The translations under genes were made by a program, and so were the position numbers. The notes under the pieces are model-generated. The model was not told the DNA's origin and ran no database searches. It saw only the letters and a program-made list of their open reading frames with translations. 64,000 nt of DNA from an uncultured Gammaproteobacteria bacterium (lineage in GTDB: Bacteria > Patescibacteriota > Patescibacteriia > CAIXNZ01), in the NCBI GenBank assembly GCA_964590345.1, contig CAZPVP010000001.1, forward strand, positions 131,954-195,953, read 5' to 3'. Shown here one piece after another: positions 1-60,413 of this stretch. Within the stretch, counting starts at the first letter, position 1. Every line of letters starts with the position of its first letter.

Positions 1-719
1 AAAGGGAAAGATGAGGCTATTGGTGACGTATTCATATTAAAAGAAATCATCAATTCATCATTTAACATCGGAATTGTTGATTTAAAACCCTGTTCAGCCT
101 GATATAAAACTTTTTTAGTATAAATTAATTTACCGCCGAAGATTGACTCAATTTCCGAAGTTAATTCATCCAATTCTTCCAAATTATCAGAATAAATTGT
201 CACATATAAAGCAAATTGGAAAAATTTTTCGGTGCCTTGAGTTAAATCATCTCTTAATTTTTCTATATCTTGTAAAGCTGTTTCTACAATTGGATCTCTT
301 GGCGCACCTTTTTCTACATCTGACATTAATTGGGCTTGTAAATTGCCTACCTTTTTTTTCAACTGTTTTAAAATAATTTCTGACTTAACAGGATAAAAAA
401 ACATTGCTACGTCCAAAGTTTTGCTCAAATTAATTATCGGGGTAAACCAACCAACGCTAATATAACGAGGATAATTTAAAACAAAAAGCGTTCTAACATA
501 ATTATCAGCTAACTTTAAAAAACTTGGTTTAATTTCAAAGGCAGCAGGAGCAATTAAATCCTTAATATCAATCACCCCTTTTCTATAAATCCTTTCTTCC
601 TCTAAAGTAATTGCTGCTTCTTTAGCTATTGTTTCTTCTTTAGCCATAGTTTCTTCTGGTGTTGATTTTTTTTCAGCAGCTGTTTCTTTTTTAAATTGTG
701 AAGAAATTGGTAAAGGCAT
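1..719 (-). CDS. virB4: VirB4/TrbE-family conjugal-transfer ATPase, 5' portion; the gene continues beyond the window start.
   Basis: A minus-strand ORF starts at an ATG at about 719-717 and runs off the window edge, which is why it is absent from the ORF track. My translation is MPLPISSQFKKETAAEKK...DLIAPAAFEIKPSFLKLADNYVRTLFVLNYPRYISVGWFTPIINLSKTLDVAMFFYPV... This matches the conserved Gram-positive-type VirB4/PrgJ/TcpF N-domain block (AP..IE..P..L..G..Y.RTL.V..YPR.V..GWL). The Walker motifs would lie outside the window. Confidence 0.6.
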   Translation of the reverse strand, partial: MPLPISSQFKKETAAEKKSTPEETMAKEETIAKEAAITLEEERIYRKGVIDIKDLIAPAAFEIKPSFLKLADNYVRTLFVLNYPRYISVGWFTPIINLSKTLDVAMFFYPVKSEIILKQLKKKVGNLQAQLMSDVEKGAPRDPIVETALQDIEKLRDDLTQGTEKFFQFALYVTIYSDNLEELDELTSEIESIFGGKLIYTKKVLYQAEQGFKSTIPMLNDELMISFNMNTSPIASSFP

Positions 720-740
720 TTTGAAATAAAATAATAATTA

Positions 741-1394
741 TTATCTTGCTATATCTAACTTGCTAATATCGCGTAATTTTTGATTTTGTGCGGTTTTGGG
801 ATTATAAGTATTATAATAAAGCTCTATTAAACCTTGGGTATCCAAAACTGCTGTATCTAAACCTAATGATTTTAAGCTTGATTGTACATTAGCAATTCTT
901 AAATTTAATTCCTCTTTATATTCCAAAAATTTTTCTCGTTTAAGTTTAATTAACTGTCCAGATTTTAAAGTTTCTTTAAATCTTCCCCAAAAATTTTTAG
1001 CCTTAAATCCTGTTGGATTATAAGGTATAACTATAAAAAAATTTTTATTCATTATTTCGCCAATTTCAATTAATTCCTGAATATAATCCAAATAACCAGC
1101 AATTTGAACCCTTAACAGCTCATTAGTCTGTTTTTTATATGCTTCTCTCAATCGCTTTAGATAATCTTCTACATCAAGCTTTCTTGATTGTATAACTATT
1201 TGCAACGGATGATCTAATGTATTTAAAAATTCCATATAACTACCAATCAAAGCATTTTGCTCATCTTCAGATTTTAAGGCAAAGTTAATACTAGAACATA
1301 AAATTACCGCCCTTAATGTCCCGTCTTTAAGAATCACTGTATCCTCCTTAATTTCTGCTATATCCAAATATTTTTGAGTTGAAACTTTGGCCAT
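741..1394 (-). CDS. VirB4-like extreme N-terminal segment (217 aa). It is separated from the downstream VirB4 ORF only by an in-frame TAA-TAA.
   Basis: ORF-track protein. The stretch YLDIAEIKEDTVILKDGTLRAVILCSSINFALKSEDEQNALIGSYMEFLNTLDHPLQIVIQSRKLDVEDYL follows the VirB4/TraC N-terminal pattern (D..I.KDG.L.AV..L.GI.F.L.SEDE...L...L.LQ...R). It is in the same reading frame as the 1..719 ORF and ends 7 codons before that ORF's ATG. Confidence 0.5.
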   Translation of the reverse strand: MAKVSTQKYLDIAEIKEDTVILKDGTLRAVILCSSINFALKSEDEQNALIGSYMEFLNTLDHPLQIVIQSRKLDVEDYLKRLREAYKKQTNELLRVQIAGYLDYIQELIEIGEIMNKNFFIVIPYNPTGFKAKNFWGRFKETLKSGQLIKLKREKFLEYKEELNLRIANVQSSLKSLGLDTAVLDTQGLIELYYNTYNPKTAQNQKLRDISKLDIAR

Positions 1395-1493: not shown

Positions 1494-1913
1494 TTATTCT
1501 TCTTCTTTATAAGCACCGCCAGTATTAACCACCAATGCTAAAGAAGAAAGCCGAGAAGTAGGCAGCGGTTCTTTTTTTATGAATTCTTTTTCAACTTCAG
1601 CTTTCTCTTTAGGGGGGAGAGATTTTACTTTTTCTTTCTTCCAAATTCTTAAACTGGGTCGTCTTAATGTTTGAATAATATTCAAAAAAAAGAAATGAAA
1701 AGGCATACCATTGACTTTAAAAAAAGCAAAAACGCCAAAAATAACAGTCACTATAACAACAACAACAACAAAAGTATTAAAATAAAAAATTTTATAAAAA
1801 ATAAAATCAAGCATACCAGCCACCAGCATAATTAAAAATTGTCTAGTCGTTATTGAGCCGATAATCTTGCTCTCAACATCAATAAATTGTGGCACTAAAA
1901 ATTGATCCGGCAT
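1494..1913 (-). CDS. PrgI/VirB3-like small T4SS membrane protein (139 aa)
   Basis: The N-terminus PDQFLVPQFIDVESKIIGSITTRQFLIMLVAG is followed by two hydrophobic helices. Size, topology and the TxRQ motif resemble the PrgI/VirB3 family. It lies immediately upstream of the VirB4 segments, which is the canonical VirB3-VirB4 order. Confidence 0.5.
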   Translation of the reverse strand: MPDQFLVPQFIDVESKIIGSITTRQFLIMLVAGMLDFIFYKIFYFNTFVVVVVIVTVIFGVFAFFKVNGMPFHFFFLNIIQTLRRPSLRIWKKEKVKSLPPKEKAEVEKEFIKKEPLPTSRLSSLALVVNTGGAYKEEE

Positions 1914-1916
1914 AAC

Positions 1917-3329
1917 TTAATATTTTAATTTTTTATTCAAATCCATAATTGCTTTAAATTCATCTAAAGAAAAGGTGTCTTTATCCTCAACGATTTTTTC
2001 AAATGATTTTCCTTCCTTAATTGCCTGATTCATGATATCAGCATAAATTTTATAAAGTGGGCTGCTTTTCAAAGCCTTAATCCCCTGCACTCTTTTAGCA
2101 ATTGACTCATCCTCCAAAAGATCCAGTTTAACTATTATTTTATTAACTGCTTCTTGAGGATCTTTGGACAGCCGACGAAAATCTTCTGTCTTAAAAACTG
2201 ACAATTCTTCAATCGGACCAACTAATTTTCTTGTAAATTTAACATCTTCAACTTTTGGCCTGCCTTCTGCTCCCTGATCAATTTTTTTAATTAAAGGCTG
2301 ATTAATTTCTTCTTGGCTTGATTCAGCTGGCTCTGGTTCAGCTGGCTCTGGTTCAGCTGGCTGTGATGCTGTTGATTGAGCTTGGGCTGAATCAGATTGC
2401 GGCGAACCAGATGGCTGAAAATTTGACTCGTTTTTTTCCTTTTCTATTGCTGGCGCTGGCGGAGCCAATTCCTCTTTGCTTTCCAAAAATTCTTCTTTTT
2501 CCTCAATTACCTCGGCCAATTCTTCTTTTTTGGGATGCACCCTTTCCTTGTCACCTAATTCTCTTTTTATTGCCTCTTTTTTGGCTAATTCTTCAAATTC
2601 CACCCCTCCTTTTTCTCTCTCAAGCAACTGATCAATAGTCACGTCTTCAGTAATTTTTTCTTTTTCTTGAGGAAGCTTAACTTTTGCTTCAACATCTATT
2701 TCTTCTTCTTCTGGCACTTTTTTTCTAAAGCTTGCCTCTTCTTTTTCTAATTCTTGAGTTATTAAATTAAGAACATCAATCCCCCTTTGAGCGTATTTTG
2801 TTTTTTTTCTTTTTAAAATATTAATTAAATCTTGAGCTTCTTGCTGATCAAAATCCAAACCGCCGACTTTATGGCTCTTGCTTAACACGGCTATTGTTTC
2901 ACTATCATCCCTTACATCACGGAACCAATTAAAAATAATATTTTCAAATCTTTTTTCAAATTTTTCATTAATTTTCAAATTGGCTTCTTTTTTTATTTCT
3001 TTAATGATTTCTTGCAAATTATTTTTTTCCTTATTTTCAGCTTTTGTTTCACTTTCTTCTGCTGCTTTTTGCGCTTCTTTGGGCAACAAAGGCAAAATTT
3101 TATCTATTAAATCATAAACAAAATCCAAAGCCACTGAAAAATCAAGATTAGCTTTTTCTTCTAATTCGCTGGCTAAATCATTTTTTTCTATTGCCCCCCC
3201 CAAATAATCTTCTATTGCTCCTATAATAATCTCCTCTTTCTTTTCTTCAATTTCATATTTTTTAAATAATCCCTCTATTTCAGTAGCAACATCTATCTCG
3301 TTTAAATATTTTTTGATTTTATTTGGCAT
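1917..3329 (-). CDS. Hypothetical acidic E/K-rich coiled-coil protein with a Pro-Ala-Glu repeat linker (470 aa), T4SS-locus associated.
   Basis: ORF-track protein with no TM segment. It contains a PAEPEPAEPEPAE low-complexity stretch. It is tightly packed, with a 3-nt gap to the downstream gene, in a co-directional operon. No recognisable catalytic motif. Confidence 0.6.
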   Translation of the reverse strand: MPNKIKKYLNEIDVATEIEGLFKKYEIEEKKEEIIIGAIEDYLGGAIEKNDLASELEEKANLDFSVALDFVYDLIDKILPLLPKEAQKAAEESETKAENKEKNNLQEIIKEIKKEANLKINEKFEKRFENIIFNWFRDVRDDSETIAVLSKSHKVGGLDFDQQEAQDLINILKRKKTKYAQRGIDVLNLITQELEKEEASFRKKVPEEEEIDVEAKVKLPQEKEKITEDVTIDQLLEREKGGVEFEELAKKEAIKRELGDKERVHPKKEELAEVIEEKEEFLESKEELAPPAPAIEKEKNESNFQPSGSPQSDSAQAQSTASQPAEPEPAEPEPAESSQEEINQPLIKKIDQGAEGRPKVEDVKFTRKLVGPIEELSVFKTEDFRRLSKDPQEAVNKIIVKLDLLEDESIAKRVQGIKALKSSPLYKIYADIMNQAIKEGKSFEKIVEDKDTFSLDEFKAIMDLNKKLKY

Positions 3330-3345
3330 AATTTATACTTTTTAT

Positions 3346-4377
3346 CTATAAAGGCCTTTCAAATAATAAACCGGCTTCAATTGCTAACAAGCTTTTTTTT
3401 ACAATATCACTAATTTTAGCCAAAATTTCATTATTAATTTCTTTGTTAGCTAATACTTCACTGGCATTAGTCAGGGCTTTTTCATAATAGTCTAATTTTG
3501 CTTCATTTAATTTCGCGTTTTTGGCTAACAATTTCTTCTGATAAGCTTTTAAAATACTGTTTGCTTTAAAAACGGCCTTTTTTAATAACTCCAAATTACT
3601 TTTATCTACCTTTTCTTTTAATTCCATAACCTTTTTAATCTCTTTGGGCCAAGTAAAATCTTTAGCTTCTCCTTGTTCAACTTTTATTAATTCTAATTCA
3701 GCCAAAATATCTCGATGCAAAACTTTTTGCACTGCCAAGTATTTTTCTCGAGCTTCTACAAATTTAACTAAATCTTCGGCCAAATCCAAGACCTTGTCTT
3801 CAGCTATTCCCTTATTTATCAACTTAACTTTCAATTTTTTTATTTTTTCTTCGCGATCCATTAATTCACCTGTTGCATAAACAAAATCACTCGGAGCTAA
3901 AATAGGATCTTCGGCTAAAATTTGATTTATCTCTTGCGCATCAATAATATCAGGGGGAGGAAATGAAAAATCAGGCGCTTCAGGCATTGTTTCATTATTT
4001 AAAAACCATTTTTTGCTTTCCTGATAATTTGAATTTAATTGGTCAAGGTTCATTACGTTTACTTGGGGCAAACTAGGCAATTTTTTAGACAGCTCTATTT
4101 TTTTCTGAACATTTTCTTTCAATTCCTTGGGCACCAAATTTTCATAAATTGAATGTAATTTTAAGCCAACGTTAATAGCCAAATTTTGATCCAATTTTAA
4201 TCGCTTTTCTAATTCATTGCTTAAAGCAAATAAAATTATTTTGCCTTCAAGTAAATCTTTAAAAATATCCTTAATTAAATCCTGTTTTGGGGCTGAAATT
4301 TTATATTTTTGAAATACTTTTTTTAAAGCTTTTTGAAAATCTTGAGAATTTAAAAATTCTTTTATCGCTTTATCCAT
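3346..4377 (-). CDS. Hypothetical coiled-coil protein (343 aa), T4SS-locus associated.
   Basis: ORF-track protein with no TM segment and long heptad-like K/E/L-rich regions. It sits between the VirB6-like gene and the acidic protein gene with 16-27 nt spacers. Confidence 0.6.
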   Translation of the reverse strand: MDKAIKEFLNSQDFQKALKKVFQKYKISAPKQDLIKDIFKDLLEGKIILFALSNELEKRLKLDQNLAINVGLKLHSIYENLVPKELKENVQKKIELSKKLPSLPQVNVMNLDQLNSNYQESKKWFLNNETMPEAPDFSFPPPDIIDAQEINQILAEDPILAPSDFVYATGELMDREEKIKKLKVKLINKGIAEDKVLDLAEDLVKFVEAREKYLAVQKVLHRDILAELELIKVEQGEAKDFTWPKEIKKVMELKEKVDKSNLELLKKAVFKANSILKAYQKKLLAKNAKLNEAKLDYYEKALTNASEVLANKEINNEILAKISDIVKKSLLAIEAGLLFERPL

Positions 4378-4404: not shown

Positions 4405-7197
4405 CTATCCCTCGCCTTCTTGCTCTCCCTCCTCTTCCTTACCTGCCAATATATTGAAACTCCTAATTTCTGTAATTAAACGGTTTATTTCATTTTGCAT
4501 TGCTTCTCTGTTATCAGCCTTTCTGTATTCGTCTAAATTATCCCTTGCTTCATTTATTCTGCTTTCGTCAACCTTTACACCAGATTCTTTTAATTTATCC
4601 ATATAACCTTCTAATTGACGAAAAATGCTTTCTACTTGAAAACCTGCATCTTTTGTTGGTGTTTCAGCTTTAGAAATAACAGATAAGCTGGTATTTAAAT
4701 TATTTACTACATTATTAGAAACACTTCTAATATCTCCAGCTTGTTTTCGATCATAAGGAAACAAATTCCTTTCTCTTTCTTTAAAAGCGTCCATATCCTC
4801 TCGCTCTGCTGCTTCAGGGACAGTTGGCGGTGATGGAGGACCAACAGCTTGAATCTTATCCTTTATATTACTATTAAGCCGGCTGGGGTCCAAAGCTGTA
4901 AAGCCCTGCCCTTGACTGCCTTGTACTGGCCGGCCCGAAGCATCATATTCAGTAGTTAATTTGGCTCTTAAATTATTCAACTGAGCTAACTCTTGGTCAT
5001 CAATCAAATCCCGATCAGCAGTCGGATCAAATTCCTTATAATGTTCTAAGGCAGCTTTGCGATAATCTTCATGGCTTTCATCAGGTTTTCTGCGGCGGTA
5101 AACATCTTCTGCTAATTGAGCGCTGTCTTCAGTTAAAGTCGTCACTCTTTTTTCTTCACCGGTTATTGGATCGCGCTCTACTCTTTCTTCAGTTTCAAGC
5201 ATATCTTTTCTGGCATCACTTGAAGACACAATAAAATCTAATTTTTTAACCAGTCTATTGCGTGCCGGACCAGCTAAACTGCCAATAAATTGATTATTAG
5301 CTGCGCCGGTTAACTCTGCTACAGCATGTTTTTGCTGACGATTAATATCTTCTTGCCAAACTTGGCGGTCAGGATTCTTTTGCCAATTTTCCCGAGCTGC
5401 GCGCGCTTTTTCATCGCCAGCTGGATCACCAACACGAGGGGCATCAGGCACTTCACCAGGATTACCAAAGCCAACCCTGTTTGCTTGCTGGACAAAGCGG
5501 TCTTTTTGCGAATTTTTAACAAAATTCTTAACTTCAGAAAAATCATCGCGAGCCTGAAGTGTTTGCGTATCCGGATCCCAGCGCAAAGGAGAAACTGGCA
5601 CTCTGCTGCCTCCTGCCTGTTCATTTTTCCTTTCTAAATTTTCGCCAAAATCAATTTGTTCTGGCTCATTCATTTTTTTAAACATCCCGCCGCGACGCAT
5701 TTGGGCCACATGAGTAGGATTTAAGGCGCCTTGTTCAGCTAAACCATTGGCAAAAGCTTCCATTTTTGTTCTATCTTTCTGCTTTGCCGCTTTTTTCAAT
5801 CCTCGGCTCATAGCAACAGGGTCCTGATACTGGCCCGTCTTTTTTAATTCCTTTAACATGCCTTCTGATTGCTTCCTTTGAACTTGTCTTTTATCTAATG
5901 GTGTGCCGCTTAAAAAGGACCCAACCCTGGCCTTGCCACGCTCATAAGCTTCTCTTCTACCTCTTTTTGTTGCTAAACGCGCCGGACCGCCACGCCGATA
6001 AGCTCTTTGACCCATTCGCGCCATAGTCGGTCTAACGGCTTTAGTATAAGGAGCTTTAACCGCTGCTTTTGTGCCTGCCATTCCTCGCCTGGCTGCGCCT
6101 TCCAATTTTCGACCGCCCCAGGCCCTGCCTCGTTTAATTGCGCCGCTTGCCATACCTGAACCAACAACAGAAAACTGCCCGCTATATTGCAAACCAGCAA
6201 CTAATAAAATAGTGCTAATAATAAATGCTAAAATATTATTCCATTTACCAGCGGCAGAAAAAGTGCCTTGGGCTGTTTCTTGCGCCGCTTCTTGGCAATC
6301 AGCTACCTTTATAAAAGCGCAAGGATCTTTAGATAATTGAGCCATGGTCAAAAGTGACAGCCAAAGGAAAAAAGCCAAAAATGGTCCAATCATGCAATAT
6401 TTCATAAACATGCTCCACCAACGTTTTGATACAGATCCTATGCCTGTTTCTTCAAAAACATAAGCAAAAAAAGCCAATGGCGAAAAAACAATTAAAATCC
6501 ACAAAGCTATTATCCTGAAAACCAATTGGACTAAAAAGATTATCATAATTATCACCAATATAGTCGTATAAACTGCGCCCAATATACTGGCGCCAATTGC
6601 CTTGACCGCATCACCACCGCCTGAAACTTCAGCTTGTTCATTAGCTTTAAACCAATCTATCATGCCTGTGCCGCCAAAAATATTGCCTTCAGTAATGCCG
6701 ACAATGGAATTAACAAAAGTCAGCATTACTACCTGGAAAAAATCAATAATTATACCGCAAATAGTTCTGCTAAAATTAACTAAAATAGCCATAATCAAAA
6801 GCTTGCCTAAAAGCTTGTTCCATTGATATTTCTCTATTTTTAAAACAGTAACAAAAGCAATAAAAAGCAAACCCAGAATAAAAAACATATTAACTATATC
6901 GCGCATCATTTTCCAGCCATCTTTTACAAAAGGAGAATTAATAAAATCATTATATTGAGCAACAATGACAACCCCTTTCATAATTAAAACTAATAAATTA
7001 CCGCAAATCCAAATCCAAACCTTAACTAAAAAATTTATGCCCGCAACCATCCAGGTCAGAACATGACCAGTCCATTTAGAGGCTTCTTCTGCCGCCCAAA
7101 CTGTTTCAACATTAAAAAACAAACAGGCAATTACAACTAAAAAAACTGCTATCATTAAACTGGCTAAAATTTTTTTATTTTGAAATTTTTTCAGCAT
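4405..7197 (-). CDS. VirB6/TrbL-like polytopic membrane protein with a long hydrophilic C-terminal extension (930 aa)
   Basis: It has a signal/anchor sequence followed by about 7-8 hydrophobic helices in the first ~330 aa, for example WMVAGINFLVKVWIWICGNLLVL and ILVIIMIIFLVQLVFRIIALWILIVF. A ~600 aa charged tail follows. This topology is typical of VirB6/TcpH/PrgH-type channel subunits. It includes a striking Arg/Gly/Ala-rich basic segment: GRAWGGRKLEGAARRGMAGTKAAVKAPYTKAVRPTMARMGQRAYRRGGPARLATKRGRREAYERGKAR. Confidence 0.55.
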   Translation of the reverse strand: MLKKFQNKKILASLMIAVFLVVIACLFFNVETVWAAEEASKWTGHVLTWMVAGINFLVKVWIWICGNLLVLIMKGVVIVAQYNDFINSPFVKDGWKMMRDIVNMFFILGLLFIAFVTVLKIEKYQWNKLLGKLLIMAILVNFSRTICGIIIDFFQVVMLTFVNSIVGITEGNIFGGTGMIDWFKANEQAEVSGGGDAVKAIGASILGAVYTTILVIIMIIFLVQLVFRIIALWILIVFSPLAFFAYVFEETGIGSVSKRWWSMFMKYCMIGPFLAFFLWLSLLTMAQLSKDPCAFIKVADCQEAAQETAQGTFSAAGKWNNILAFIISTILLVAGLQYSGQFSVVGSGMASGAIKRGRAWGGRKLEGAARRGMAGTKAAVKAPYTKAVRPTMARMGQRAYRRGGPARLATKRGRREAYERGKARVGSFLSGTPLDKRQVQRKQSEGMLKELKKTGQYQDPVAMSRGLKKAAKQKDRTKMEAFANGLAEQGALNPTHVAQMRRGGMFKKMNEPEQIDFGENLERKNEQAGGSRVPVSPLRWDPDTQTLQARDDFSEVKNFVKNSQKDRFVQQANRVGFGNPGEVPDAPRVGDPAGDEKARAARENWQKNPDRQVWQEDINRQQKHAVAELTGAANNQFIGSLAGPARNRLVKKLDFIVSSSDARKDMLETEERVERDPITGEEKRVTTLTEDSAQLAEDVYRRRKPDESHEDYRKAALEHYKEFDPTADRDLIDDQELAQLNNLRAKLTTEYDASGRPVQGSQGQGFTALDPSRLNSNIKDKIQAVGPPSPPTVPEAAEREDMDAFKERERNLFPYDRKQAGDIRSVSNNVVNNLNTSLSVISKAETPTKDAGFQVESIFRQLEGYMDKLKESGVKVDESRINEARDNLDEYRKADNREAMQNEINRLITEIRSFNILAGKEEEGEQEGEG

Positions 7198-7212: not shown

Positions 7213-10200
7213 TTATGGACTAGACGCGCCACCTTCAGGTGATGAATTGCCTTCATGTTTGCAAACATCGCCATTCCAAGAACAACCAATTTTGTTTTCA
7301 CACTCTGTTTCATCTTTATAATAAGCGCAGGTATCAATCAAAAAAGGATAATAAGTCAAGCAAGCATAGGGTTGATAATCAGAAGTCGTTTCATAAAAAT
7401 CCTGGTAAATCCCGTCATAAAGCGGATTTGAAGTATCAAATTCTAAACACATACCTTCAAGGCCAAAGATTGCTTTTCTATTTTCTATATCTTTACAATT
7501 TGCGAGTTCTTCAGGATTGTCCGGATCATAATATGGATTACAGTCAGATGCCTTACTGCAAACTTGCCCCTTTGCTTCTTCAGGCATGGTACAAATTTTT
7601 GCCGGTGAATCACCTAAAGGAAAATAAGTTGTATAACCTCCTGCTTTAACTTGTTCATAAGAACAAGCAGTACCAATATCTTTTAAGTCTACAGATTGAC
7701 TATATAAATTCGGTATATCTTTATATTCTTGCTCTTCTGATAATTGATAAGGCAAGGGTGCGTTCTGTTCAGGGAATATTTTACAAATTGCTTCTGTATA
7801 ACGTTCATCTGCTGTCCTGCCCAATTTATTCAAATGAAAATATTGTTCAAATTCTTTATCATTTAACTCTGTCTCTAAAGGGAAACGATTAGGGATAGTA
7901 TAACCAGAGTAATCACCTGCGCGCCATTGCGTTAACTGCGTTAACGGGCCTATGCCGAAACGATAAATATAACCTTCTTTGTTATTATAATCGCTTATTC
8001 TTTTTATTGTCATTGGCTCTTCTTGCAAACTATATCGTACATTATCTTTTGGTGCTCTAACTAACTCGCCTCCCTGCCATTCAGTTAATAATCTAACGCA
8101 TTCACTGGCTTCGCGTTCAGCGCACAAATTAACTTGCTGACAAAAACCATTTTCGTCTTTTTCTGTGCAAACGGCCCATTGCTCACAATTACGGTCCTTT
8201 GAAACTTTTATTGTCTCAAAATTATTATTTGCTGTATTTAAAAATTCTACACAGCCATTATTCCAATCAACTTCTGTACAGCTTGACCTGTCAACATTAA
8301 CTCCTAAATCTATAACATAATAACTGTCTTCTGTATTGTCTTTGACTTCAACCTGGTCATAAATTATATAAGAATCGGGGCAGTTGTTTTTTTCAGCGCT
8401 TTTATTCCCATTAAGCGGGGCATATAAGATTAAATTGAAATCAAGCAAATCATCAAATTCGTTCCATGTAAGATCCTCTTCTTCGCAGCTTTTTTGAGAT
8501 TTATAATCAGAATTTTCACACTCACCAAGCGGCACCGAATATAAAATTTCTACTTTTTTCCAGTCAGTTTCAGCTGTATAAATAATTGGTTCGGCTCCCC
8601 TTTCTGAATCAACCGGCCTAAATTCAAAAGCTGCTTCTGGCATTGGGCAATCATTGCCCACGCCTTTTGAATCTTCATTCATTTTATAATAAAAAGAAAT
8701 TTTATAAGCTTTACCTTTTTCTAAACGGACAAGTTTTTGGCTAATACCATAAGGGGGGGCTTCACATTCTTCATATAAAGGCGTACTTGGGCAATCTTGA
8801 GCAGTTTCTTTTATTAATTTAATAGCTGTTTCACCGGCCTGGACATCATCTATTTCTTTATCCTGGCTGCCAGAACTAGCCGCTACAGTCACCCAATTTG
8901 ACAAACCACCAGTCGGATCACGGGTTTCAAAACCACCGTTAAAGACAAAATTAGGATTAATATCTAAAAATTCAGTGCAACCATTCCATTCTTCACTGCA
9001 TTTTCCGACATAACCTTTATATTTATTTGCCTCATAAACTTTATAAATACTAAACGGATAAGCTAAACATTGAGAATTAAGCCATTCGCCTCTTTTTAAC
9101 AAACAGGTTTCTTCATCTTTTATTTCAGGCAAAATTAAAGTGCATTGATCATATTTTTCACTCCACTCTCCGCCATTATCTTGACAATCCTCTATATTAT
9201 CAAAAAGCAAGCCGCCACAGCCAAGTTTAGGATTGCCTTTTTTAAACCAGCCTTCAACCTTTTGACCATTAATTAAATTTTGCTTATACTCGCAAAGTTT
9301 GGTTGGCTCAATTTTATAATACTCTGAAACACCCTCTTCATTAATTAATTCCGTACAACCTAAAGCGTCATGATTGCATAAAATGGCGTCTGGCACATTA
9401 ACATATTTGTCCGGATTATTCTTTAAATAAACTTCTTGAAAAGTTATATTCTCTACATCTTCAAAGTTTGGCTTGCCTAAACGCTGACAACCTTTATCAT
9501 TATCAGAACAGCTATAATTATCATTCAAAACTAAAGTGGTTAATTCATCTTCAGCTACTGAATAATCATCCAAAGGCGAGGCATTCTCATTATTAAAAGT
9601 CTGGCCATGTGGATTGACTGAATTTTTAGTATCAACTAAAATTTGACAACCGACTGCGCTTTCTCTACATAGATTAGTAAACGATCTAAGATAATGAGTC
9701 TGTCCTAAAATATCCTCATAAGCTTGACAACCTATCATTTCTCCCTTTTTAAATACGCCGTAAAATGTTCTATCACAGCTGTCTGGCGTTGACCAACTAT
9801 CTTTAATAGCATAAACATTATCTTTAACCACTTTTAATAAAATATTATCCAAATAAACTTTATTATCAAGGGAATCAAAGATTAAACTGTTATTTTGCAA
9901 ATCATCCCAGCTAACATAAACCGGCCCTAAAGTATAATTTTGCCAGTCCGTAGTCAATCTTACCGTTTGGTTCTCCAAGGTAGCGAAATTTTCCATGGTT
10001 GTAGCATTACCGTCATCTACTGCTGTGCTAAATCTAACTGCGATTACTTCACCTGCTGGATTGTCAGTCTTTGCCCAAAATGACAAAGTGTATAAATTAC
10101 CCCGTTGAATATCAATAAATTTATGAATACTGTTTACTTCTTGCTGAGGAATCAATAAAGAATGGCCGCCTACTGCTATTGATTCGCCAACTCTAGTTAA

Positions 10201-13200
10201 AGAATCATTTTCCTCTCCCTCCAAACCATTATACCAATCTAATTCAGCTGTGTCTTCAAAATTATCAAACATTTTTATATAAACATTATTGCCTTGATTG
10301 CCGACAAAAGCACGGCAGCCATTTGCTTCAGGACGGCAGGCAATGCCTTCATCTGGGATAGCGTCATAAAGGCAAGCTTCAATATCGCTCTGCCAGCGGC
10401 CATTAGTAGCTTCACAATTTTCTTCAGTTGCGTCAGTTTTTCTGTAAGGGTGGCAGTCTTCTGAAACCGAAACTGTTTTTCTAATATTGCGCCAATAATT
10501 GTTGCCATCATTGTCAAAAAAATTAATACACTTAAAATCTTGGCTGCCTAAAGTTACTCTACAATCGGCTGAACCATCAATTGTTTTTGGCGCACCAGTA
10601 TTCTCATCTTGCTGTAATTCATATTTAATCAATTGCGGCGGACCTGTTTCAGAGCCCTGCCAGGTGAAATAGGTCTTTTCTCCTAAGCCTAAATTAGGTT
10701 TAATGCATTGCCTTAAATAAGTATAATATCCAATGCCCTCGCCTCCTCTAGCCACTTCATCTAAATTAGTAAACTGCGAACAGCCAACTTCATCAAGCGT
10801 ACAAGCTGAAGCCGTATCTGGAATAAAATAATGATATAAAGGATCAGGTTCTGGATCATATAGCGCTGACTCTTGTTTATAAGTATCATAACCGACACAT
10901 TCAGCCGGACAATAATCATACGTGCTTACTACGCCAGGAATCGGAGGATCATTATTCAAAGGCGTAAAAAGCTGACAACCGACTTCTTCGGGTTGGCAAA
11001 CTTTCATATAATTTATACAGGCTGAATCATCAGGTGCATATTTATAACAAGCTGTTTTGTCAGCAAAGAATGCTGGTTTATCATCTTCTGGCTGATCCCA
11101 AAAATACCCATTGTCTTCACAAGCCTTTTTAGTTGTAAAATTTGCCATTACCGGCGGCGGATCACCCGGTCCATAGCCATGACAATTTAAAATTTCCGGC
11201 GGTTTCTTATAATAAATCTTATTATTTGATTCATAATCAGTATATCCGCTAATAAAATCTCTGTTTCTCACCTGATCAATTGTGTTTAGAGATAAATCAA
11301 GAGCATCTAAATAAACCTCTGCATCTGTTTCACCGCCTGGCAAATTAATTAAAATTTCAAGAGCTGTGCCTGGACGCGAAGTCATTAATGTGCTATTAAC
11401 TCGAGAATAGGCATTATTTAAGGAAAAACTGCCACTATTAAGCTCGTCAGGGAAAGTTTTTATCTTTTTTACTAAATTAAAAATAATTGGTTGATCCAGG
11501 GGCTGATTAGACTTTAAATAAGCTGTGGCTGTATAAGTGTCGCCTGCTCTTGTTAAATTCCCATCCTCATTAAATTTAAGGCTGTGAACGAGCTGCAATT
11601 CTTGATCAGCTGGAATTTGGCTAATATCCACTTGCAATTTACCTAAGCCACGATGTACATTGAAGCCATCTTTAGAAACAGAAGCTATGTCACTAAATGG
11701 CCCGTACCCCAGCCAATCGCCTAAAAGTTCTTGGCAATTCTCTTTGCTATAATCATAAATAAAAGCATCTTGACAACTCTTTAGCCAACTACCTCCATTT
11801 TGCACGCAAGTCTCTTCGCCTGCTTCAGTTAATTCGCTTGAAATCTGACCGTCAATCTGACATTCAGTCTGCCAAGTTCCATTATTATCTTCACAATCTG
11901 CTTGATTATCAAATTGCGGATTTCTGCAAAGGTTATATTTTAAAATACTTGTTAAACAATATTTTTTATATTCCGCATCTATGCCAAGTTTATCATTAGA
12001 ACAATCATCTTCTTTTACGTCATCATTTACCGCGCCTTCACAACGATAATCCCAAGTTCCCTCGCGAGCTAAACATTCTTCTTCTGTTACTGCATCTTCA
12101 ACACCGTCACAAAAACCCTGCCAAGTGCCATTATTAAAATTACACAATTCTCTTGTTTCATAACCATAATTTAAACAACTTTCATAATAAGTACCGTCAC
12201 ATTCATCTCTTTCTTCTACTTCTTTTTTAAGTCGCAAATCCCAATTAGCCGGGAAATAACCTTCTTTAGTGTATTCAAAGCTTGAATCAGCCACTAAATT
12301 ATTAGCCGAATCACGATATAAGAAAAATTCATTACAGCCTTCGTTTTCTTTTTGGCAGCTTTCAACATTATTGTTTAAATAAATCCTTTGATCATCCTGC
12401 CAAAGACCAGCTTTTGAACGATTAGTAGCATACCAACTGCAGCCTGCATTATGAGGCCCGCAGATTTCGCTGCCGCTTAGAGTATTTTTTAAATATGAAA
12501 TTAAACTAGTGCCTTCAGGCTCACTAATCGTATAAGTACGGCAGCTATTATATGCTTCAGGGCAAGAATCAGCGCCAAATTGCCAAGCATTTTTTTCTTT
12601 GACACAAAATCCATAATCTTCATTAACACAGCCTCCCTTGCCATCTTCCTCCAAGCAGGAAGAAAAATCAGGGCAGCGAGAGTACCTTTGGCCAGTTAAA
12701 TTAGACATTAAAATTTCACCGTAAGGCTCTAAATCAGTTTGCAAAGCGCATTTTGTTGTTGGAATTTTTAAAAGCCAATCAGGATCGACCAAATTACAAA
12801 AAGCTGACTCATCATCATCAAAATCACCGCAAGTTCCAGAACCAATTTTATCAAAACCATTAACGACATCAGCCAGAGTTGCTCCGACAACTTCATTTTT
12901 CTTTCTTATGTTATAATTTCTAATTTCTTCCAAACTGGCCCCAACGCCTGATGGCTTAAATAAACAATTTCTTAATCGTTCCGCAACAAAAGGTTTGGCA
13001 AGATCATTGTAGCCCGGTTGCTGTGCAGTTATATCTTCAAACTTGGCAAAATCAGGCTGGCCATCATTATCTTCATCATAAATATTTCTAAAATTACAGT
13101 CTCTAACTAATTCAATAGCCAATTCCAAACCCAAAGGCACAACACGAGCTTTTCTTAATTTTTTAATATTAGCCAAATGATAAGTGCCTGTTTCTACAGT

Positions 13201-15156
13201 CTCACCCCATGAAAAACCATAATCACCAACTAATTTCCTTTTTTCTAAAGCCTCACTTATTGTTAATTTATCATTAATTGCTAAAGCAAAATTTGAATCA
13301 ATAACATTATTATAAATATTTGGATTAACTTCCCCCTTAAGCTCTAATTGAAAATCAGACAATAAATTCACACTTTTATATGTAGCACTATAACTAAATT
13401 GCTGAGCCAACTTTTCAACATAACTTTGTATGCCTTCACTTGTCACTACTTCCTGGCTAAAAACATTAAAAGGCTGAACAGGATCCAAGGGTTCGCTTTC
13501 TGCTTCATCTGCGGCTTGTTTTTTTAACTTTGCGACTGAATACTCTTCTTGTTGCGATTCATTTAAGGCTGTTAATAACCTTTTTATCATGTGATTCCAA
13601 AGTGTGCCTGTAAAAACACCCAAAGCATCAGCTGCGATTTCTTTAGTATAAATTCTGGCATTATAAACCCCCTTGCTTGCTTTTAAATCTTCTTCTACTG
13701 AATCCCTAATAAGATTAGCAGGGGTTTGAATAGTATCAGTAATGCGATCCATGGCCCCTTTCCAGCCATCATTAATGGTTGCTTCAACGTGACGGTCAAT
13801 AAATTTATCAAGACCAACATCAACTATTTCTTTAGCTATATTTTCCCAAGCATTAAATTCATTGGCTTCAGGATTAAACATTCCCTTGCCTAATTGCCAA
13901 TTATATCTTTCACCGGCTTCAAAATTTTCAGGCGTTAATAATCTATCAAGACTGCTTTTTAAATAATCAAAGCTGCTTTTTATAGAATCAATAACACCTT
14001 CAATCAAGCCAATCTTGCGATTAACTTCATTTTCATAAATTTCAGCCAAATTTCTAGCGTCTTCTGGTATTGTGCCCAGGACCGGGCCTATGCCTAAACC
14101 CTGTAAAACCCTTGCGCAGTCGCCTTCACGCAATTCTATTGCGCTTTTGCCTTTACAGCCTGAATAAACAGATTTGGCTTCCTGTAAATTTTCCAGCCAA
14201 GGATCAATCCTGTTAAACCATTCTTCTTTAATTAAAGGGATATTTTCCGGTGCAATAACAAATTCACCAACTGATAATTCAACCGGTTCACTGCTTGCCA
14301 TTCCGCCTCTAATCGCTCTGCTATCATCTGATAATGTTTCTGTTAAATCATCCAGTTTTTCAGCATATACCTGCAAATTTTCTTGAACTGGCGGCATACT
14401 GCATTTGACTCGGCCTCCAGAAATAGACTCGCAATTTCCTGGTAACCAGTCCATCAACCGGTTATCCCATATCATAAGCTGCTCGTCATAAAGCGTAAAA
14501 TTTCGTAATCTTTCATTGCTCTCACTGACTGTCCCGCCTTCCTGAATTTGATAATTAAAAGAAAACCAATCTGACTCTGCCCATTCTTCCCAATGGCTAG
14601 TCAACTCTGAAAACGAACAATCAGGCGAATAGCCTTTAAAGCCTGGAAACATAGGCATATCCAAAGTTAAATCAATTGCTATTCTTGGATCAAGAGTGCA
14701 AATATCAATACCGGTTAAATCCTGCATCACGGTCTGAATCATATCACCAATTGCCGCATCAGCATAACCCTGAATAAATTGGTCAAAATTTGTAATAAAT
14801 TTAGGCGCACCGCCTTTATCTGAATGAGCCACCCATACAGCTGTCTGCTGGGCAATCGTATTTGCTAATCCGCCTAAAATATTTTTAAAAAACATTGCTT
14901 TTATTTCACTCAAAATTTTTGTGATTATCCTGTCAACTTTTTTTTCTGTTTCCTCTGCTGCTTGCTGACTCATATGAGCGCCTTTCATCACATTCTCGGC
15001 TGTCGAAAGAGGAACTAAATCTGGATTAGTTACAGGCGTTGCTTTTACCTCTTCAAGCTTAAAAAAGAAAACAGCATAAAAATTGCTAAAAACAAAAATC
15101 AGCGCAACAACTAAAATTATCAGCTTTTTAATTTTTATTTTTCTTGACTTAAGCAT
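7213..15156 (-). CDS. Giant secreted or membrane-anchored cysteine-rich protein (2647 aa), a putative surface/adhesin component of the T4SS-like locus.
   Basis: A single uninterrupted ORF with an N-terminal hydrophobic anchor (LIILVVALIFVFSNFYAVFFF). Paired cysteines recur along its length and there are many Asn-x-Ser/Thr sites. It is co-directional and immediately downstream of the VirB6-like gene (15-nt gap). Confidence 0.7.
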   Translation of the reverse strand: MLKSRKIKIKKLIILVVALIFVFSNFYAVFFFKLEEVKATPVTNPDLVPLSTAENVMKGAHMSQQAAEETEKKVDRIITKILSEIKAMFFKNILGGLANTIAQQTAVWVAHSDKGGAPKFITNFDQFIQGYADAAIGDMIQTVMQDLTGIDICTLDPRIAIDLTLDMPMFPGFKGYSPDCSFSELTSHWEEWAESDWFSFNYQIQEGGTVSESNERLRNFTLYDEQLMIWDNRLMDWLPGNCESISGGRVKCSMPPVQENLQVYAEKLDDLTETLSDDSRAIRGGMASSEPVELSVGEFVIAPENIPLIKEEWFNRIDPWLENLQEAKSVYSGCKGKSAIELREGDCARVLQGLGIGPVLGTIPEDARNLAEIYENEVNRKIGLIEGVIDSIKSSFDYLKSSLDRLLTPENFEAGERYNWQLGKGMFNPEANEFNAWENIAKEIVDVGLDKFIDRHVEATINDGWKGAMDRITDTIQTPANLIRDSVEEDLKASKGVYNARIYTKEIAADALGVFTGTLWNHMIKRLLTALNESQQEEYSVAKLKKQAADEAESEPLDPVQPFNVFSQEVVTSEGIQSYVEKLAQQFSYSATYKSVNLLSDFQLELKGEVNPNIYNNVIDSNFALAINDKLTISEALEKRKLVGDYGFSWGETVETGTYHLANIKKLRKARVVPLGLELAIELVRDCNFRNIYDEDNDGQPDFAKFEDITAQQPGYNDLAKPFVAERLRNCLFKPSGVGASLEEIRNYNIRKKNEVVGATLADVVNGFDKIGSGTCGDFDDDESAFCNLVDPDWLLKIPTTKCALQTDLEPYGEILMSNLTGQRYSRCPDFSSCLEEDGKGGCVNEDYGFCVKEKNAWQFGADSCPEAYNSCRTYTISEPEGTSLISYLKNTLSGSEICGPHNAGCSWYATNRSKAGLWQDDQRIYLNNNVESCQKENEGCNEFFLYRDSANNLVADSSFEYTKEGYFPANWDLRLKKEVEERDECDGTYYESCLNYGYETRELCNFNNGTWQGFCDGVEDAVTEEECLAREGTWDYRCEGAVNDDVKEDDCSNDKLGIDAEYKKYCLTSILKYNLCRNPQFDNQADCEDNNGTWQTECQIDGQISSELTEAGEETCVQNGGSWLKSCQDAFIYDYSKENCQELLGDWLGYGPFSDIASVSKDGFNVHRGLGKLQVDISQIPADQELQLVHSLKFNEDGNLTRAGDTYTATAYLKSNQPLDQPIIFNLVKKIKTFPDELNSGSFSLNNAYSRVNSTLMTSRPGTALEILINLPGGETDAEVYLDALDLSLNTIDQVRNRDFISGYTDYESNNKIYYKKPPEILNCHGYGPGDPPPVMANFTTKKACEDNGYFWDQPEDDKPAFFADKTACYKYAPDDSACINYMKVCQPEEVGCQLFTPLNNDPPIPGVVSTYDYCPAECVGYDTYKQESALYDPEPDPLYHYFIPDTASACTLDEVGCSQFTNLDEVARGGEGIGYYTYLRQCIKPNLGLGEKTYFTWQGSETGPPQLIKYELQQDENTGAPKTIDGSADCRVTLGSQDFKCINFFDNDGNNYWRNIRKTVSVSEDCHPYRKTDATEENCEATNGRWQSDIEACLYDAIPDEGIACRPEANGCRAFVGNQGNNVYIKMFDNFEDTAELDWYNGLEGEENDSLTRVGESIAVGGHSLLIPQQEVNSIHKFIDIQRGNLYTLSFWAKTDNPAGEVIAVRFSTAVDDGNATTMENFATLENQTVRLTTDWQNYTLGPVYVSWDDLQNNSLIFDSLDNKVYLDNILLKVVKDNVYAIKDSWSTPDSCDRTFYGVFKKGEMIGCQAYEDILGQTHYLRSFTNLCRESAVGCQILVDTKNSVNPHGQTFNNENASPLDDYSVAEDELTTLVLNDNYSCSDNDKGCQRLGKPNFEDVENITFQEVYLKNNPDKYVNVPDAILCNHDALGCTELINEEGVSEYYKIEPTKLCEYKQNLINGQKVEGWFKKGNPKLGCGGLLFDNIEDCQDNGGEWSEKYDQCTLILPEIKDEETCLLKRGEWLNSQCLAYPFSIYKVYEANKYKGYVGKCSEEWNGCTEFLDINPNFVFNGGFETRDPTGGLSNWVTVAASSGSQDKEIDDVQAGETAIKLIKETAQDCPSTPLYEECEAPPYGISQKLVRLEKGKAYKISFYYKMNEDSKGVGNDCPMPEAAFEFRPVDSERGAEPIIYTAETDWKKVEILYSVPLGECENSDYKSQKSCEEEDLTWNEFDDLLDFNLILYAPLNGNKSAEKNNCPDSYIIYDQVEVKDNTEDSYYVIDLGVNVDRSSCTEVDWNNGCVEFLNTANNNFETIKVSKDRNCEQWAVCTEKDENGFCQQVNLCAEREASECVRLLTEWQGGELVRAPKDNVRYSLQEEPMTIKRISDYNNKEGYIYRFGIGPLTQLTQWRAGDYSGYTIPNRFPLETELNDKEFEQYFHLNKLGRTADERYTEAICKIFPEQNAPLPYQLSEEQEYKDIPNLYSQSVDLKDIGTACSYEQVKAGGYTTYFPLGDSPAKICTMPEEAKGQVCSKASDCNPYYDPDNPEELANCKDIENRKAIFGLEGMCLEFDTSNPLYDGIYQDFYETTSDYQPYACLTYYPFLIDTCAYYKDETECENKIGCSWNGDVCKHEGNSSPEGGASSP

Positions 15157-15215: not shown

Positions 15216-16022
15216 TCAATATGAATTAAGAATTTCTAAAAACGTGTTTTTTAAAGTCTGATCATCAATCTGATCCAATAAGTTTTTATCAATACCGCTT
15301 TTTTCCAGCTCCTCTCTTATTTGAGCCGGGGTTAAATTTTTTAGTTCTTCTATTGTTAATTCCTTTGCTTCAGGACTTAATTGCTCAGTTGTTTCTGTCC
15401 CTATTGACTCACCGCTGCTAAACTCTTCTAACATTTGCTGAAAATCCTGATCATAAATACCCATTGCCTCTAAATTCATATCCTCAGAAGAATATGTATC
15501 AATTAAATCAGTTATTTCATTTGCCGGTCCATTCATGTTTTGATTTAAAGATGTTCCTGCTGCTTCTTCTTCAAACTGCTGAGCAGTACAATCTTCCCCC
15601 TCCGGGCAATTGGGATCAGTGCCAGCCAAAATTTCCTGTTTATCCCAAATGCCATCACTGTCGCTATCCTCCAAATAAGGACTGGTTTGATAAATATAAA
15701 TCTCACTATAATCATCTAAACCGTCTAAATCACTATCCTGATTTTGCAATTTAATAACTTCTTCTTCTGGCCTTGCTTGATTTGTAGCGCTAACCTTATA
15801 TTTGTTCCGCAAGTCACTTCTTATATTATGCAAATAGCTGGGATACAAAGGCTCTTCTAAATTTTTTTTAAACTGGAGATAACCAAGGACTAAAGCAGAA
15901 ATTGTAATTAAAATTAAAAAAAATACAAAGAATTTCTCCATAGGAGTCTTTTCTATTTTGCTGCTTATTTCTTCGCTTTTTTCTTCAAAAAATTCTTTTA
16001 TTTTTTCTCGTCTGTCTGTCAT
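15216..16022 (-). CDS. Membrane-anchored acidic protein with TSP3-like calcium-binding Asp motifs (268 aa)
   Basis: One TM helix (FFVFFLILITISALVLGYLQF). After it come DSDLDGLDDYSE and DSDSDGIWDKQEILAGTDPNCPEGEDC, which fit the thrombospondin type-3 repeat pattern DxDxDG..D...DNCP. The C-terminus is acidic. Confidence 0.6.
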   Translation of the reverse strand: MTDRREKIKEFFEEKSEEISSKIEKTPMEKFFVFFLILITISALVLGYLQFKKNLEEPLYPSYLHNIRSDLRNKYKVSATNQARPEEEVIKLQNQDSDLDGLDDYSEIYIYQTSPYLEDSDSDGIWDKQEILAGTDPNCPEGEDCTAQQFEEEAAGTSLNQNMNGPANEITDLIDTYSSEDMNLEAMGIYDQDFQQMLEEFSSGESIGTETTEQLSPEAKELTIEELKNLTPAQIREELEKSGIDKNLLDQIDDQTLKNTFLEILNSY

Positions 16023-16078: not shown

Positions 16079-16927
16079 TTAAACCACAAATTGTTGATAA
16101 ATATCAGCCCAATTTTTTAAACTCAAATCTTGAGCTCTGATATTCTCTTTTAATTGAGCTGATTTTAGCTTATTTTTAACTATTTGTTTGTCTAATTTTA
16201 AGCCAGCTGCCAAATTATTTTGCAATTGTTTCCTGGGCGAACTAAAGCCAATTTTAACCAACTGCCAGAATTTATTTTCCTTGAAATTTTTTATCTTTGA
16301 TACCGCGGCTGGCAAGGTTTGGCTTAATTTTATTTTTAAAATTGCGCTATCAACCTTTGGCTGCGGATAAAAACTTTTTGCAGAAATATAATCAATTATT
16401 TGAGCTTGGCCATAAAATTGGACTGACAAGCTTAAAAGGCTCATTTTGCCGGGTTTTGCTACAATTTTTTGTGCTACTTCTTTTTGCACCAAAACAACCA
16501 TTATTCCTGGCTTTGGCTCATAAGTTAAAAATTTTTTCAAAACCGGCTTAGTAATCAAATAGGGCAAATTAGCCACTACTTTATATTTGTCACTTTGCAA
16601 TTCTTTAGCTAAATCTGAATTTTTAATTTCTAAAATATCAGCCTGTAAAATTCCCAGGTTTTTAATCCCTTTGAATTTCTGTTTCAAAAAACAAGCTAAT
16701 CCTTTATCTAATTCAATGACCAAAACTCTTTTGCTAAACTCTATTAATTTTTCGGTAAGAATGCCAAAGCCCGGCCCAATTTCTAAAACATAGTCGTTTT
16801 TATTTAGATTCGCTGTTTCAGCTATTTTTTCTAAAACTTTTTTATCAGTTAAAAAATTCTGGCCCTTATTTCTGCTTGGCCTAATGCCATACTTCTGACA
16901 CATTTTTTTTATCTCATTTTTTTGCAT
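16079..16927 (-). CDS. rsmA: 16S rRNA (adenine1518/1519-N6)-dimethyltransferase RsmA/KsgA
   Basis: KGQNFLTD signature and EIGPGFGILT SAM-binding motif; 282 aa. Confidence 0.85.
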   Translation of the reverse strand: MQKNEIKKMCQKYGIRPSRNKGQNFLTDKKVLEKIAETANLNKNDYVLEIGPGFGILTEKLIEFSKRVLVIELDKGLACFLKQKFKGIKNLGILQADILEIKNSDLAKELQSDKYKVVANLPYLITKPVLKKFLTYEPKPGIMVVLVQKEVAQKIVAKPGKMSLLSLSVQFYGQAQIIDYISAKSFYPQPKVDSAILKIKLSQTLPAAVSKIKNFKENKFWQLVKIGFSSPRKQLQNNLAAGLKLDKQIVKNKLKSAQLKENIRAQDLSLKNWADIYQQFVV

Positions 16928-52571: not shown

Positions 52572-52577
52572 GCTATT

Positions 52578-53726: not shown

Positions 53727-53734
53727 AAAATTGT

Positions 53735-60409: not shown

Positions 60410-60413
60410 AATT

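Follow-up and report, generated by a model that had tools for sequence, protein, structure and literature searches.

In a 64,000-nt stretch of DNA (contig CAZPVP010000001.1, positions 131,954 to 195,953; hereafter the window), the minus strand encodes a giant Cys-rich protein of 2,647 aa, and the gene lies immediately 5' of type IV secretion system (T4SS) genes. We rate this protein as a T4SS-associated giant surface protein with an undescribed N-terminal domain (N-domain) and an undescribed Cys-rich spacer. It belongs to a family with a common full-length architecture, homology to carbohydrate-binding modules (CBMs) and a conserved gene order. With moderate confidence, we favour the explanation that the giant is secreted by Sec and serves the T4SS as a glycan-binding arm, without being a T4SS substrate. 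As family members stand at the head of the T4SS gene cluster in hundreds of ultra-small Patescibacteria genomes, the giant is the strongest candidate for a putative host-gripping part. A literature search yielded no published account of the family, and the surveys of Patescibacteria T4SSs that were read do not mention the giant (PMC12102498, PMC12857230, PMC10633639, PMC11665869).

Sequence and probable export signal of the giant protein

The giant is encoded by a single unbroken open reading frame (ORF; 7213..15156, minus strand) of 7,944 nt with an ATG start. It takes up 12.4% of the window, in agreement with the initial annotation of this DNA, which had given a single ORF of ~7.9 kb and ~12%. 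The protein was identical to database protein P0001, which is encoded on an NCBI contig of 214,542 bp. It is strongly acidic (D+E 440 vs K+R 240) and contains 94 Cys residues (3.55%), corresponding to ~47 potential disulfides. The spacing of the Cys residues was non-random, with 12 occurrences each of C-x6-C and C-x10-C against 2.5 +/- 1.6 in 2,000 shuffles, and the dozens of paired Cys reported initially were thereby confirmed. The many N-glyco-like sequons reported with them were not, as the number of N-x-S/T sequons (19) was close to that expected by composition (20.9), and N-glycosylation of the giant was dropped.

The sole hydrophobic segment of the giant is aa 12-30. The N-terminus consists of a K/R-rich n-region and a hydrophobic core followed by 'VKA|TP', and across the family an A-x-A(Q) motif was found 5-15 residues past the hydrophobic stretch, in its strict form (AxA) in 41 of 69 members. 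Since such a motif after a hydrophobic stretch is typical of cleavable Sec signal peptides, the segment is probably one of these and not the N-terminal anchor first proposed, with a signal anchor as the alternative. The giant has no LPx[TSA][GANS] motif anywhere in its sequence and no C-terminal hydrophobic 19-mer. Among 220 database proteins of >2,000 aa, nearly all of them family members, one had LPxTG in the last 80 aa and one had a C-terminal hydrophobic 19-mer.

The protein family

A word-indexed search with the giant returned only 10 relatives, all 'hypothetical' and one from Candidatus Falkowbacteria, and a search of a large database with a profile made from a 40-sequence alignment returned the same 10 proteins only. 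With the N-terminal 730 aa as the query, an exhaustive profile search yielded 1,350 representatives of clusters at 50% identity, of which 384 had E <= 1e-30; nearly all the matched proteins were 2,000-3,600 aa long with 3-6% Cys. A second, single-sequence query found 372 more proteins at E <= 1e-20, which were named 'hypothetical', 'carbohydrate binding domain-containing' and, in one case, 'dockerin type I domain-containing'. When one genome per species was scanned, the family was found at 425 places; the titles of the assemblies were Falkowbacteria, Buchananbacteria, Uhrbacteria, Kerfeldbacteria, Parcubacteria or Patescibacteria group, and the nearest relatives were labelled Buchananbacteria, Uhrbacteria and Falkowbacteria.

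Full-length orthologues were 26-60% identical to the giant. Forty full-length members (28-60% identity to the window protein) could be aligned from end to end, with more than 40 invariant Cys residues between C153 and C2599. Because the alignment runs from end to end and the invariant Cys are found throughout, we regard the family as orthologous, with a fixed architecture, and not as the product of the domain shuffling that had been considered initially. Most of the variation fell within insertions (aa 201-425, 701-750, 976-1150 and 1326-1375) and within the C-terminal third. Most of the distant members, as seen in the consensus of the larger subfamily, have an extra C-terminal extension of ~500 aa that is absent from the window protein; it holds a fourth CBM-like module, 'NGxFE...DDIKI', and a conserved 'VDWGDxExT...PHSLYHLYSYWDLK' module.

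These data also bear on whether the giant might be an assembly or annotation artefact or a pseudogene, that is, a chance long ORF, a product of fused genes or, as the initial annotation had considered, of frameshifts. Only the unusual length speaks for such an origin. Some 75 independent assemblies contained the same full-length ORF, in which Cys residues are invariant from one end to the other and invariant residues range from aa 87 to aa 2604, and the 220 database proteins of >2,000 aa belong almost entirely to the family. The chance of an artefact is therefore negligible.

Domain organization of the giant

The giant was divided into the following parts, from the N-terminus to the C-terminus.

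15040..15156, minus strand: probable signal peptide (aa 1-39), putatively cleaved, with the hydrophobic segment and A-x-A motif given above.
12907..15039, minus strand: alpha-helical N-domain (aa 40-750), which defines the family; conserved blocks at aa 76-200 and 426-700.
13882..14556, minus strand: lineage-specific insertion within the N-domain (aa 201-425); occupancy 0.2-0.35 across 75 orthologues.
12232..12906, minus strand: Cys-rich region A (aa 751-975), with the family signature LVDPxW[VL]LK and two C-x5-GC motifs (C899, C934).
11707..12231, minus strand: lineage-specific insertion with C-x4-G-x-W-x3-C repeats, which form C-x10-C pairs (aa 976-1150); occupancy 0.12-0.31.
11182..11706, minus strand: beta-sandwich module 1, CBM_4_9-like (aa 1151-1325); hhalign against module 2 with a probability of 96.4%, E = 1.2e-9.
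10312..11181, minus strand: Cys-rich region B (aa 1326-1615), the most conserved part of the giant, with three C-x5-GC motifs.
9772..10311, minus strand: beta-sandwich module 2, CBM_4_9/CBM22-like (aa 1616-1795), by Pfam PF02018.
8977..9771, minus strand: Cys-rich region C (aa 1796-2060), with four C-x5-GC and two C-x4-GxW-x-C motifs.
8287..8976, minus strand: beta-sandwich module 3, CBM_4_9-like (aa 2061-2290), by Pfam PF02018 and hhalign.
7216..8286, minus strand: C-terminal Cys-rich region, the distal end (aa 2291-2647); no Pfam family, no LPXTG and no membrane anchor.

Scans of the whole protein against Pfam and NCBIfam returned no enzymatic domain, in line with the initial statement that it has no recognisable enzymatic motifs; CBM_4_9 was the only family found. 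Module 2 matched PF02018 over aa 1672-1742 with 37.2 bits (gathering cut-off 25.9; E = 4.7e-9), and module 3 reached 26.3 bits against the same cut-off of 25.9 when the segment aa 2061-2300 was scanned alone. Module 3 was also aligned with module 2 by hhalign (probability 90.8%, E = 1.2e-6). In the PDB, the family profile matched xylanase, laminarinase and hyaluronate lyase modules, including 4xup (the CBM22 of Xyn10C; E = 3.6e-9) and 1gui (a CBM4; E = 2.4e-6). By these profile matches the CBM modules of the giant are true PF02018 members, and glycan binding is predicted for them.

The modules are separated by Cys-rich spacers. The main spacer motif, C-x5-G-C-x2-[YFL], with the fuller form C-[SDN]-A-x-x-[VA]-G-C-x-[EA]-[YFL], occurs in nine copies in the giant. 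The median in the family was 8 per protein, compared with 0.23 in shuffles, with a total of 624 copies in 76 proteins. One copy stands immediately before module 2 and one before module 3, and the copy at C934 precedes module 1, with the aa 976-1150 insertion in between. The second motif, C-x4-G-x-W-x3-C, occurs in eight copies, four of them within this insertion, which is confined to close relatives and also gave a weak NDUF_B7-like match (E = 0.005). Region B was 56-73% identical to the full-length relatives P0002-P0008. Self-BLAST detected no internal repeats in the giant; its repeats are short motifs and divergent CBM modules, which were seen only by regular expressions and hhalign. With at least 1,350 clusters at 50% identity, this is a large family for whose N-domain and C-x5-GC spacer there is neither a Pfam or NCBIfam model nor a solved structure.

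No Pfam, NCBIfam or PDB relative of the N-domain was found. Its invariant residues include C153, C180, D510, F515, R668, R671, P674, G676 and E678. An AlphaFold2 model of the N-domain from a 10-sequence alignment had a pLDDT (predicted local distance difference test score) of 50.6. With a 34-sequence alignment, aa 40-975 were modelled with a mean pLDDT of 62.7, and only aa 209-414 and 619-799 were modelled confidently. The confident parts were predicted as plain helical bundles, and the aa 201-425 insertion was modelled as helical hairpins with short beta-hairpin tips (pLDDT >90).

Alternatively, the giant might be an enzyme that acts on carbohydrates or peptidoglycan, with a catalytic domain that has gone unrecognised in the N-domain or the C-terminal region; it would be the wall-opening VirB1 analogue of this T4SS or attack the host envelope, and use the CBMs for targeting. 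CBM_4_9 and CBM22 modules are usually appended to glycoside hydrolases, as the PDB matches illustrate, and among the invariant residues of the N-domain some are acidic (D510, E678) and some basic (R668, R671). Moreover, in classes of Patescibacteria apart from Paceibacteria, VirB1 homologues mostly lack an association with virB4 (PMC12102498). The plain helical bundles of the N-domain model argue against an enzyme, and we consider this explanation unlikely.

Linkage of the giant with T4SS genes

According to the initial annotation, the giant followed the VirB6-like gene directly. On the minus strand, which encodes both, it in fact lies 15 bp upstream (5') of that gene. The genes around the giant are listed here in the order of transcription.

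16079-16927: KsgA, upstream of the TSP3 protein.
15216..16022, minus strand: the TSP3 partner, a single-pass membrane protein of 268 aa that carries a Ca-binding repeat of the TSP3 type; it ends 59 bp before the giant start.
4405..7197, minus strand: TrbL/VirB6-like protein of 930 aa; it begins 15 bp past the giant stop.
1917..4377, minus strand: two paralogous acidic proteins without membrane segments, of 343 aa (3346-4377) and 470 aa (1917-3329).
1494..1913, minus strand: PrgI (VirB3-like), Pfam PF12666, E = 4.5e-10.
741..1394, minus strand: TrsD-like protein, similar to the VirB4 N-terminal region; in NCBIfam it matched TrsD (E = 8.6e-9) and VirB4_plasma (E = 5.5e-9), in neither case reaching the curated cut-off.
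1..719, minus strand: first part of the VirB4 ATPase gene, which continues beyond the window; it matches a hidden Markov model (HMM) of orthologous P-loop_TraG/AAA_10 proteins.

Neither the 59-bp nor the 15-bp gap that flanks the giant contains a terminator-like site. The neighbourhood holds virB4, TrsD, PrgI/VirB3 and VirB6 of the MPF_FATA-like T4SS gene set described for Patescibacteria, and a ComF-like gene is present in the orthologous loci; Patescibacteria T4SSs are of the monoderm MPF_FATA type, and loci of the class ABY1 carry comF (PMC12102498).

The 930-aa protein itself had no Pfam, NCBIfam or PDB match, and PF04610 was not reached directly. Its aa 1-340 contain 9 hydrophobic segments, and its tail is long and charged. 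Among its orthologues, 11 of 70 matched PF04610 TrbL/VirB6 (best E = 6.3e-7), and the L005 orthologue had a weak TrbL_3 match. The VirB6-like label given initially therefore rests on the matches of the orthologues together with the polytopic topology, and not on a Pfam match of the window protein. Orthologues of the TrsD-like protein carry PF26593 TraC-like.

The order KsgA, TSP3 protein, giant, VirB6-like protein, p450, PrgI, TrsD, VirB4, p215 and ComF was conserved. To count from the side of the giant, 80 species-representative loci were used, and the VirB6-like gene was scored where at least 3.5 kb of downstream sequence was present (n=52). It was found downstream of the giant on the same strand in 47 of the 52 loci, at a distance of 120 bp or less in 26 of them, so that the link to a T4SS-like locus made in the initial annotation proved to be real and conserved. 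The TSP3 protein was directly 5' of the giant in 63/67 loci, mostly within 50 bp, and KsgA was upstream in 51/62. The count from the side of VirB6 used metagenome loci with at least 3 kb upstream (n=49). The giant was upstream in 25 of these, namely those with the VirB6-like protein closest to that of the window, and the 24 operons without it have more distant VirB6-like relatives. In two of the 24 (L116 and L123) the order was rearranged and the giant was located downstream of the VirB6-like gene, after two small genes, so that the linkage was kept.

Small genes between the giant and the VirB6-like gene were noted in several loci. In L116 (13957-14361) and L123 (8165-8551) one of them was identified by eye as 'four-helix-bundle / 23S rRNA intervening-sequence-like'. 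In one subfamily (L019, L025-L029, L038, L042, L050, L055 and L056), the giant is separated from the VirB6-like gene by a protein of 190-300 aa with 1-3 (usually 2-3) predicted membrane segments, encoded directly 5' of the VirB6-like gene. Small membrane proteins of this kind matched no Pfam family and were not pilin-like by our own HMM; they may be a further undescribed membrane component of the T4SS.

Several observations weigh against a role of the giant in the T4SS. Other genes separated the giant from the VirB6-like gene in 21 of the 47 loci (gaps of 0.2-7.5 kb), there was no VirB6-like gene downstream in 5 of the 52 giant loci nor in L003, and the 24 of 49 operons without an upstream giant were of the same type and kept the order from VirB6-like to ComF. 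The housekeeping gene ksgA was equally conserved; gene order therefore appears to be frozen generally in the clade, which may explain much of the adjacency, and adjacency alone is weak evidence here. In addition, the structural model is poor outside the two confident stretches, with Cys-rich region A unfolded, and the VirB2-pilin-fused giants of the window, described below, could be the T4SS adhesins instead.

The main alternative is that the giant is a general envelope or surface protein, such as a coat, a wall-associated fibril or an adhesin, that is independent of the T4SS and stays beside it by inherited gene order, as ksgA does. The operons without the giant and the giant loci without a downstream VirB6-like gene speak for it. 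Upstream, housekeeping genes such as KsgA, RF-1 and a GT2 glycosyltransferase are retained in position from locus to locus, and the tightest partner of the giant is the small TSP3 protein, which is no T4SS gene and whose type also accompanies the other Cys-rich giants of the window. Against this explanation stand the short distance to the VirB6-like gene in the 26 loci, the position of the giant beside that gene even after independent rearrangement in L116 and L123, and the presence of the giant in the 25 loci with the closest VirB6-like proteins. We regard a general surface protein as possible but rather doubtful. Since the giant and the T4SS are tightly and persistently linked within one large clade, a shared function is favoured; since 24 of 49 operons lack the giant and ksgA is equally conserved, the giant is read as a lineage-specific accessory or neighbour and not as the core of the machine.

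The position in a T4SS locus could also mean that the T4SS exports the giant, or injects it into the host, as a substrate or effector; for the T4SS of Saccharibacteria, a delivery of effectors has been the subject of speculation (PMC11665869). The Sec-type N-terminus with its A-x-A motif and the 94 mostly conserved, pair-spaced Cys residues, which indicate extracellular disulfides, give the giant the profile of a Sec-exported extracellular protein, and for this reason we do not regard it as a T4SS substrate. Its size of 2,647 aa also argues against this role, as does the full-length architecture kept across ~30% identity, unlike that of fast-evolving effectors; a coupling-protein gene was not seen among the T4SS genes of the examined loci. 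A substrate is thus very improbable. The initial suggestion of an exported or adhesive element of the T4SS-like machine is retained in its adhesive part, which fits the three CBM_4_9 modules, and abandoned for export by the T4SS.

Other genes in the window

The window contains further giants on the minus strand. A 3,771-aa protein (41256-52571) has an N-terminal T4SS_pilin domain (VirB2-like, aa 53-117) fused to Laminin_G_3, TIG and Big_5 domains, and it is preceded by two shorter T4SS_pilin proteins (52578-53726 and 53735-55825) of 382 aa and of 696 aa, the longer one having Big_5. It is unusual for a pilin to be fused to lectin-like domains of ~3,600 aa, and the 3,771-aa protein may be the pilus-borne adhesin of the same T4SS. 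Further Cys-rich secreted proteins are encoded at 36403-41217 (1,604 aa, 5.5% Cys), 34551-36275 (574 aa, 4.0%) and 33997-34533 (178 aa, 4.5%); they gave weak Lcl_C and TSP_3 matches and had no similarity to the studied giant and no Cys motifs in common with it. A kinship of the studied giant with the 1,604-aa and 3,771-aa giants was rejected, as BLAST found no similarity and no Cys motifs were shared. The three largest genes of the window together comprise 24,075 nt (37.6% of the window).

Two small single-pass membrane proteins on the minus strand (33228-33959 and 32035-33099) matched an HMM of the TSP3 partner of the giant, and the first of them matched TSP3_bac with E = 7.8e-24. As small TSP3/dockerin-like Ca-binding membrane proteins recur beside Cys-rich giants, TSP3 proteins may be tethering partners of these giants.

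The acidic protein between the VirB6-like protein and PrgI is duplicated in the window, the two copies having similar N-termini, and relatives have one gene of ~450 aa at this place; the 343-aa and 470-aa proteins had no Pfam or NCBIfam family. VirB4 is split into two genes, a 217-aa TrsD-like N-terminal part and a separate ATPase, in every related locus examined, in agreement with the abundance of TrsD reported in Patescibacteria T4SSs (PMC12102498). The other genes of the window include FtsZ, FtsA, NrdD, RF-1, KsgA, HisRS and signal peptidase I, and the surrounding genes show the features of a small-genome, low-GC Patescibacterium (candidate phyla radiation, CPR). The GC skew was negative in all 2-kb windows of 1-64000 and between -0.12 and -0.29 in all but one up to ~58 kb. 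All annotated genes up to ~58 kb are on the minus strand; the following genes are on the plus strand (59018-62647), where the skew is ~-0.06 to -0.10. The change of strand and skew at ~58 kb could be a replication-related strand switch.

Proposed role of the giant

In the explanation that we favour, the giant would be co-transcribed with the T4SS genes, exported by Sec and folded outside the cell with many disulfides. The conserved N-domain would retain it at the surface, via the VirB6-type channel and/or the small TSP3 membrane protein, while the disulfide-rich spacers would form a stiff stalk and the CBM modules would bind a polysaccharide of the host cell envelope. The giant would thereby hold the T4SS against the target, a role that is played elsewhere by PrgB-type adhesins or by VirB5 and pilus tips. 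As such it would be an accessory of one lineage, and neither a core subunit nor a substrate of the T4SS.

A more specific proposal, which we put forward only tentatively, is that the giant is the missing host-recognition component of the T4SS of this clade. From outside the cell, the N-domain would dock onto the VirB6-type channel, so that the giant would be a functional counterpart of VirB5/PrgB with an unrelated fold; the TSP3 protein would tether the giant through Ca2+-dependent dockerin-like contacts, and the variable CBM/Cys-rich body would set which host glycans are bound. If this is true, the CBM/Cys-rich body decides which hosts the episymbiont attaches to and draws nucleic acids or other molecules from.

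The T4SS is essential in one Saccharibacterium, the only species tested, and the function of the Patescibacteria T4SS has been called 'completely unknown' (PMC10633639, PMC11665869). A survey of Patescibacteria T4SSs detected no PrgB-like adhesin (PMC12102498). The giant family, found at 425 places in species-representative genomes and placed at the head of the VirB6-VirB4 operon, is a concrete candidate for bringing the T4SS into contact with the host, and possibly for host range. Should the adjacency be inherited synteny only, the giant would still be an important and conserved part of the surface in a class of bacteria about which little is known.

Comparison with known systems

The VirB2-pilin-fused giants of the window (41256-55825) resemble the studied giant in being giant, Cys-containing and extracellular, in having beta-sandwich domains of the lectin-like type and in their connection to a T4SS; for Patescibacteria T4SSs, arrays of pilins have been described (PMC12102498, PMC10633639). 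However, the pilin-fused giants have an N-terminal T4SS_pilin and Laminin_G_3, TIG and Big_5 domains, none of which is present in the studied giant, and the studied giant is located with VirB6/VirB4 genes and not with pilin genes.

The giant shares with xylanases and laminarinases the beta-sandwich modules of the CBM_4_9/CBM22/CBM4 type, of which it has three, two of them at the Pfam gathering score. In contrast to these enzymes, it has no attached glycoside hydrolase domain. Its modules are framed by Cys-rich C-x5-GC spacers, which are not a feature of cellulosomal or xylanase CBMs.

VirB5 (TraC of pKM101) is a pilus-tip and stalk protein of ~220 aa that is encoded just upstream of virB6 in Gram-negative T4SSs. 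The giant likewise has a probable signal peptide, an alpha-helical domain and a gene immediately 5' of a VirB6-type gene, and VirB2-like pilins are present in its genome too. Nevertheless, the giant has 2,647 aa against ~220 aa, and the resemblance appears to be positional only. A similarity of the N-domain to VirB5 had no profile or fold support, the N-domain model being poor.

PrgB, the aggregation substance of pCF10, is the surface adhesin of a monoderm T4SS of the MPF_FATA type. The giant has no sequence relationship with PrgB, no LPXTG sortase signal and no adhesin or Ig-like Pfam domains; whole-protein Pfam and NCBIfam scans for PrgB or antigen I/II adhesin domains returned only CBM_4_9. 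It is also twice as large as PrgB, Cys-rich and equipped with CBM_4_9 modules. A PrgB homologue is not detectable in Patescibacteria (PMC12102498). Like PrgB, the giant is nonetheless a large and probably Sec-exported surface protein encoded with a T4SS of the Gram-positive type (PrgH/VirB6, PrgI/VirB3 and PrgJ/VirB4), and the role proposed for the giant would be the same as that of PrgB, to hold the donor against the target cell.

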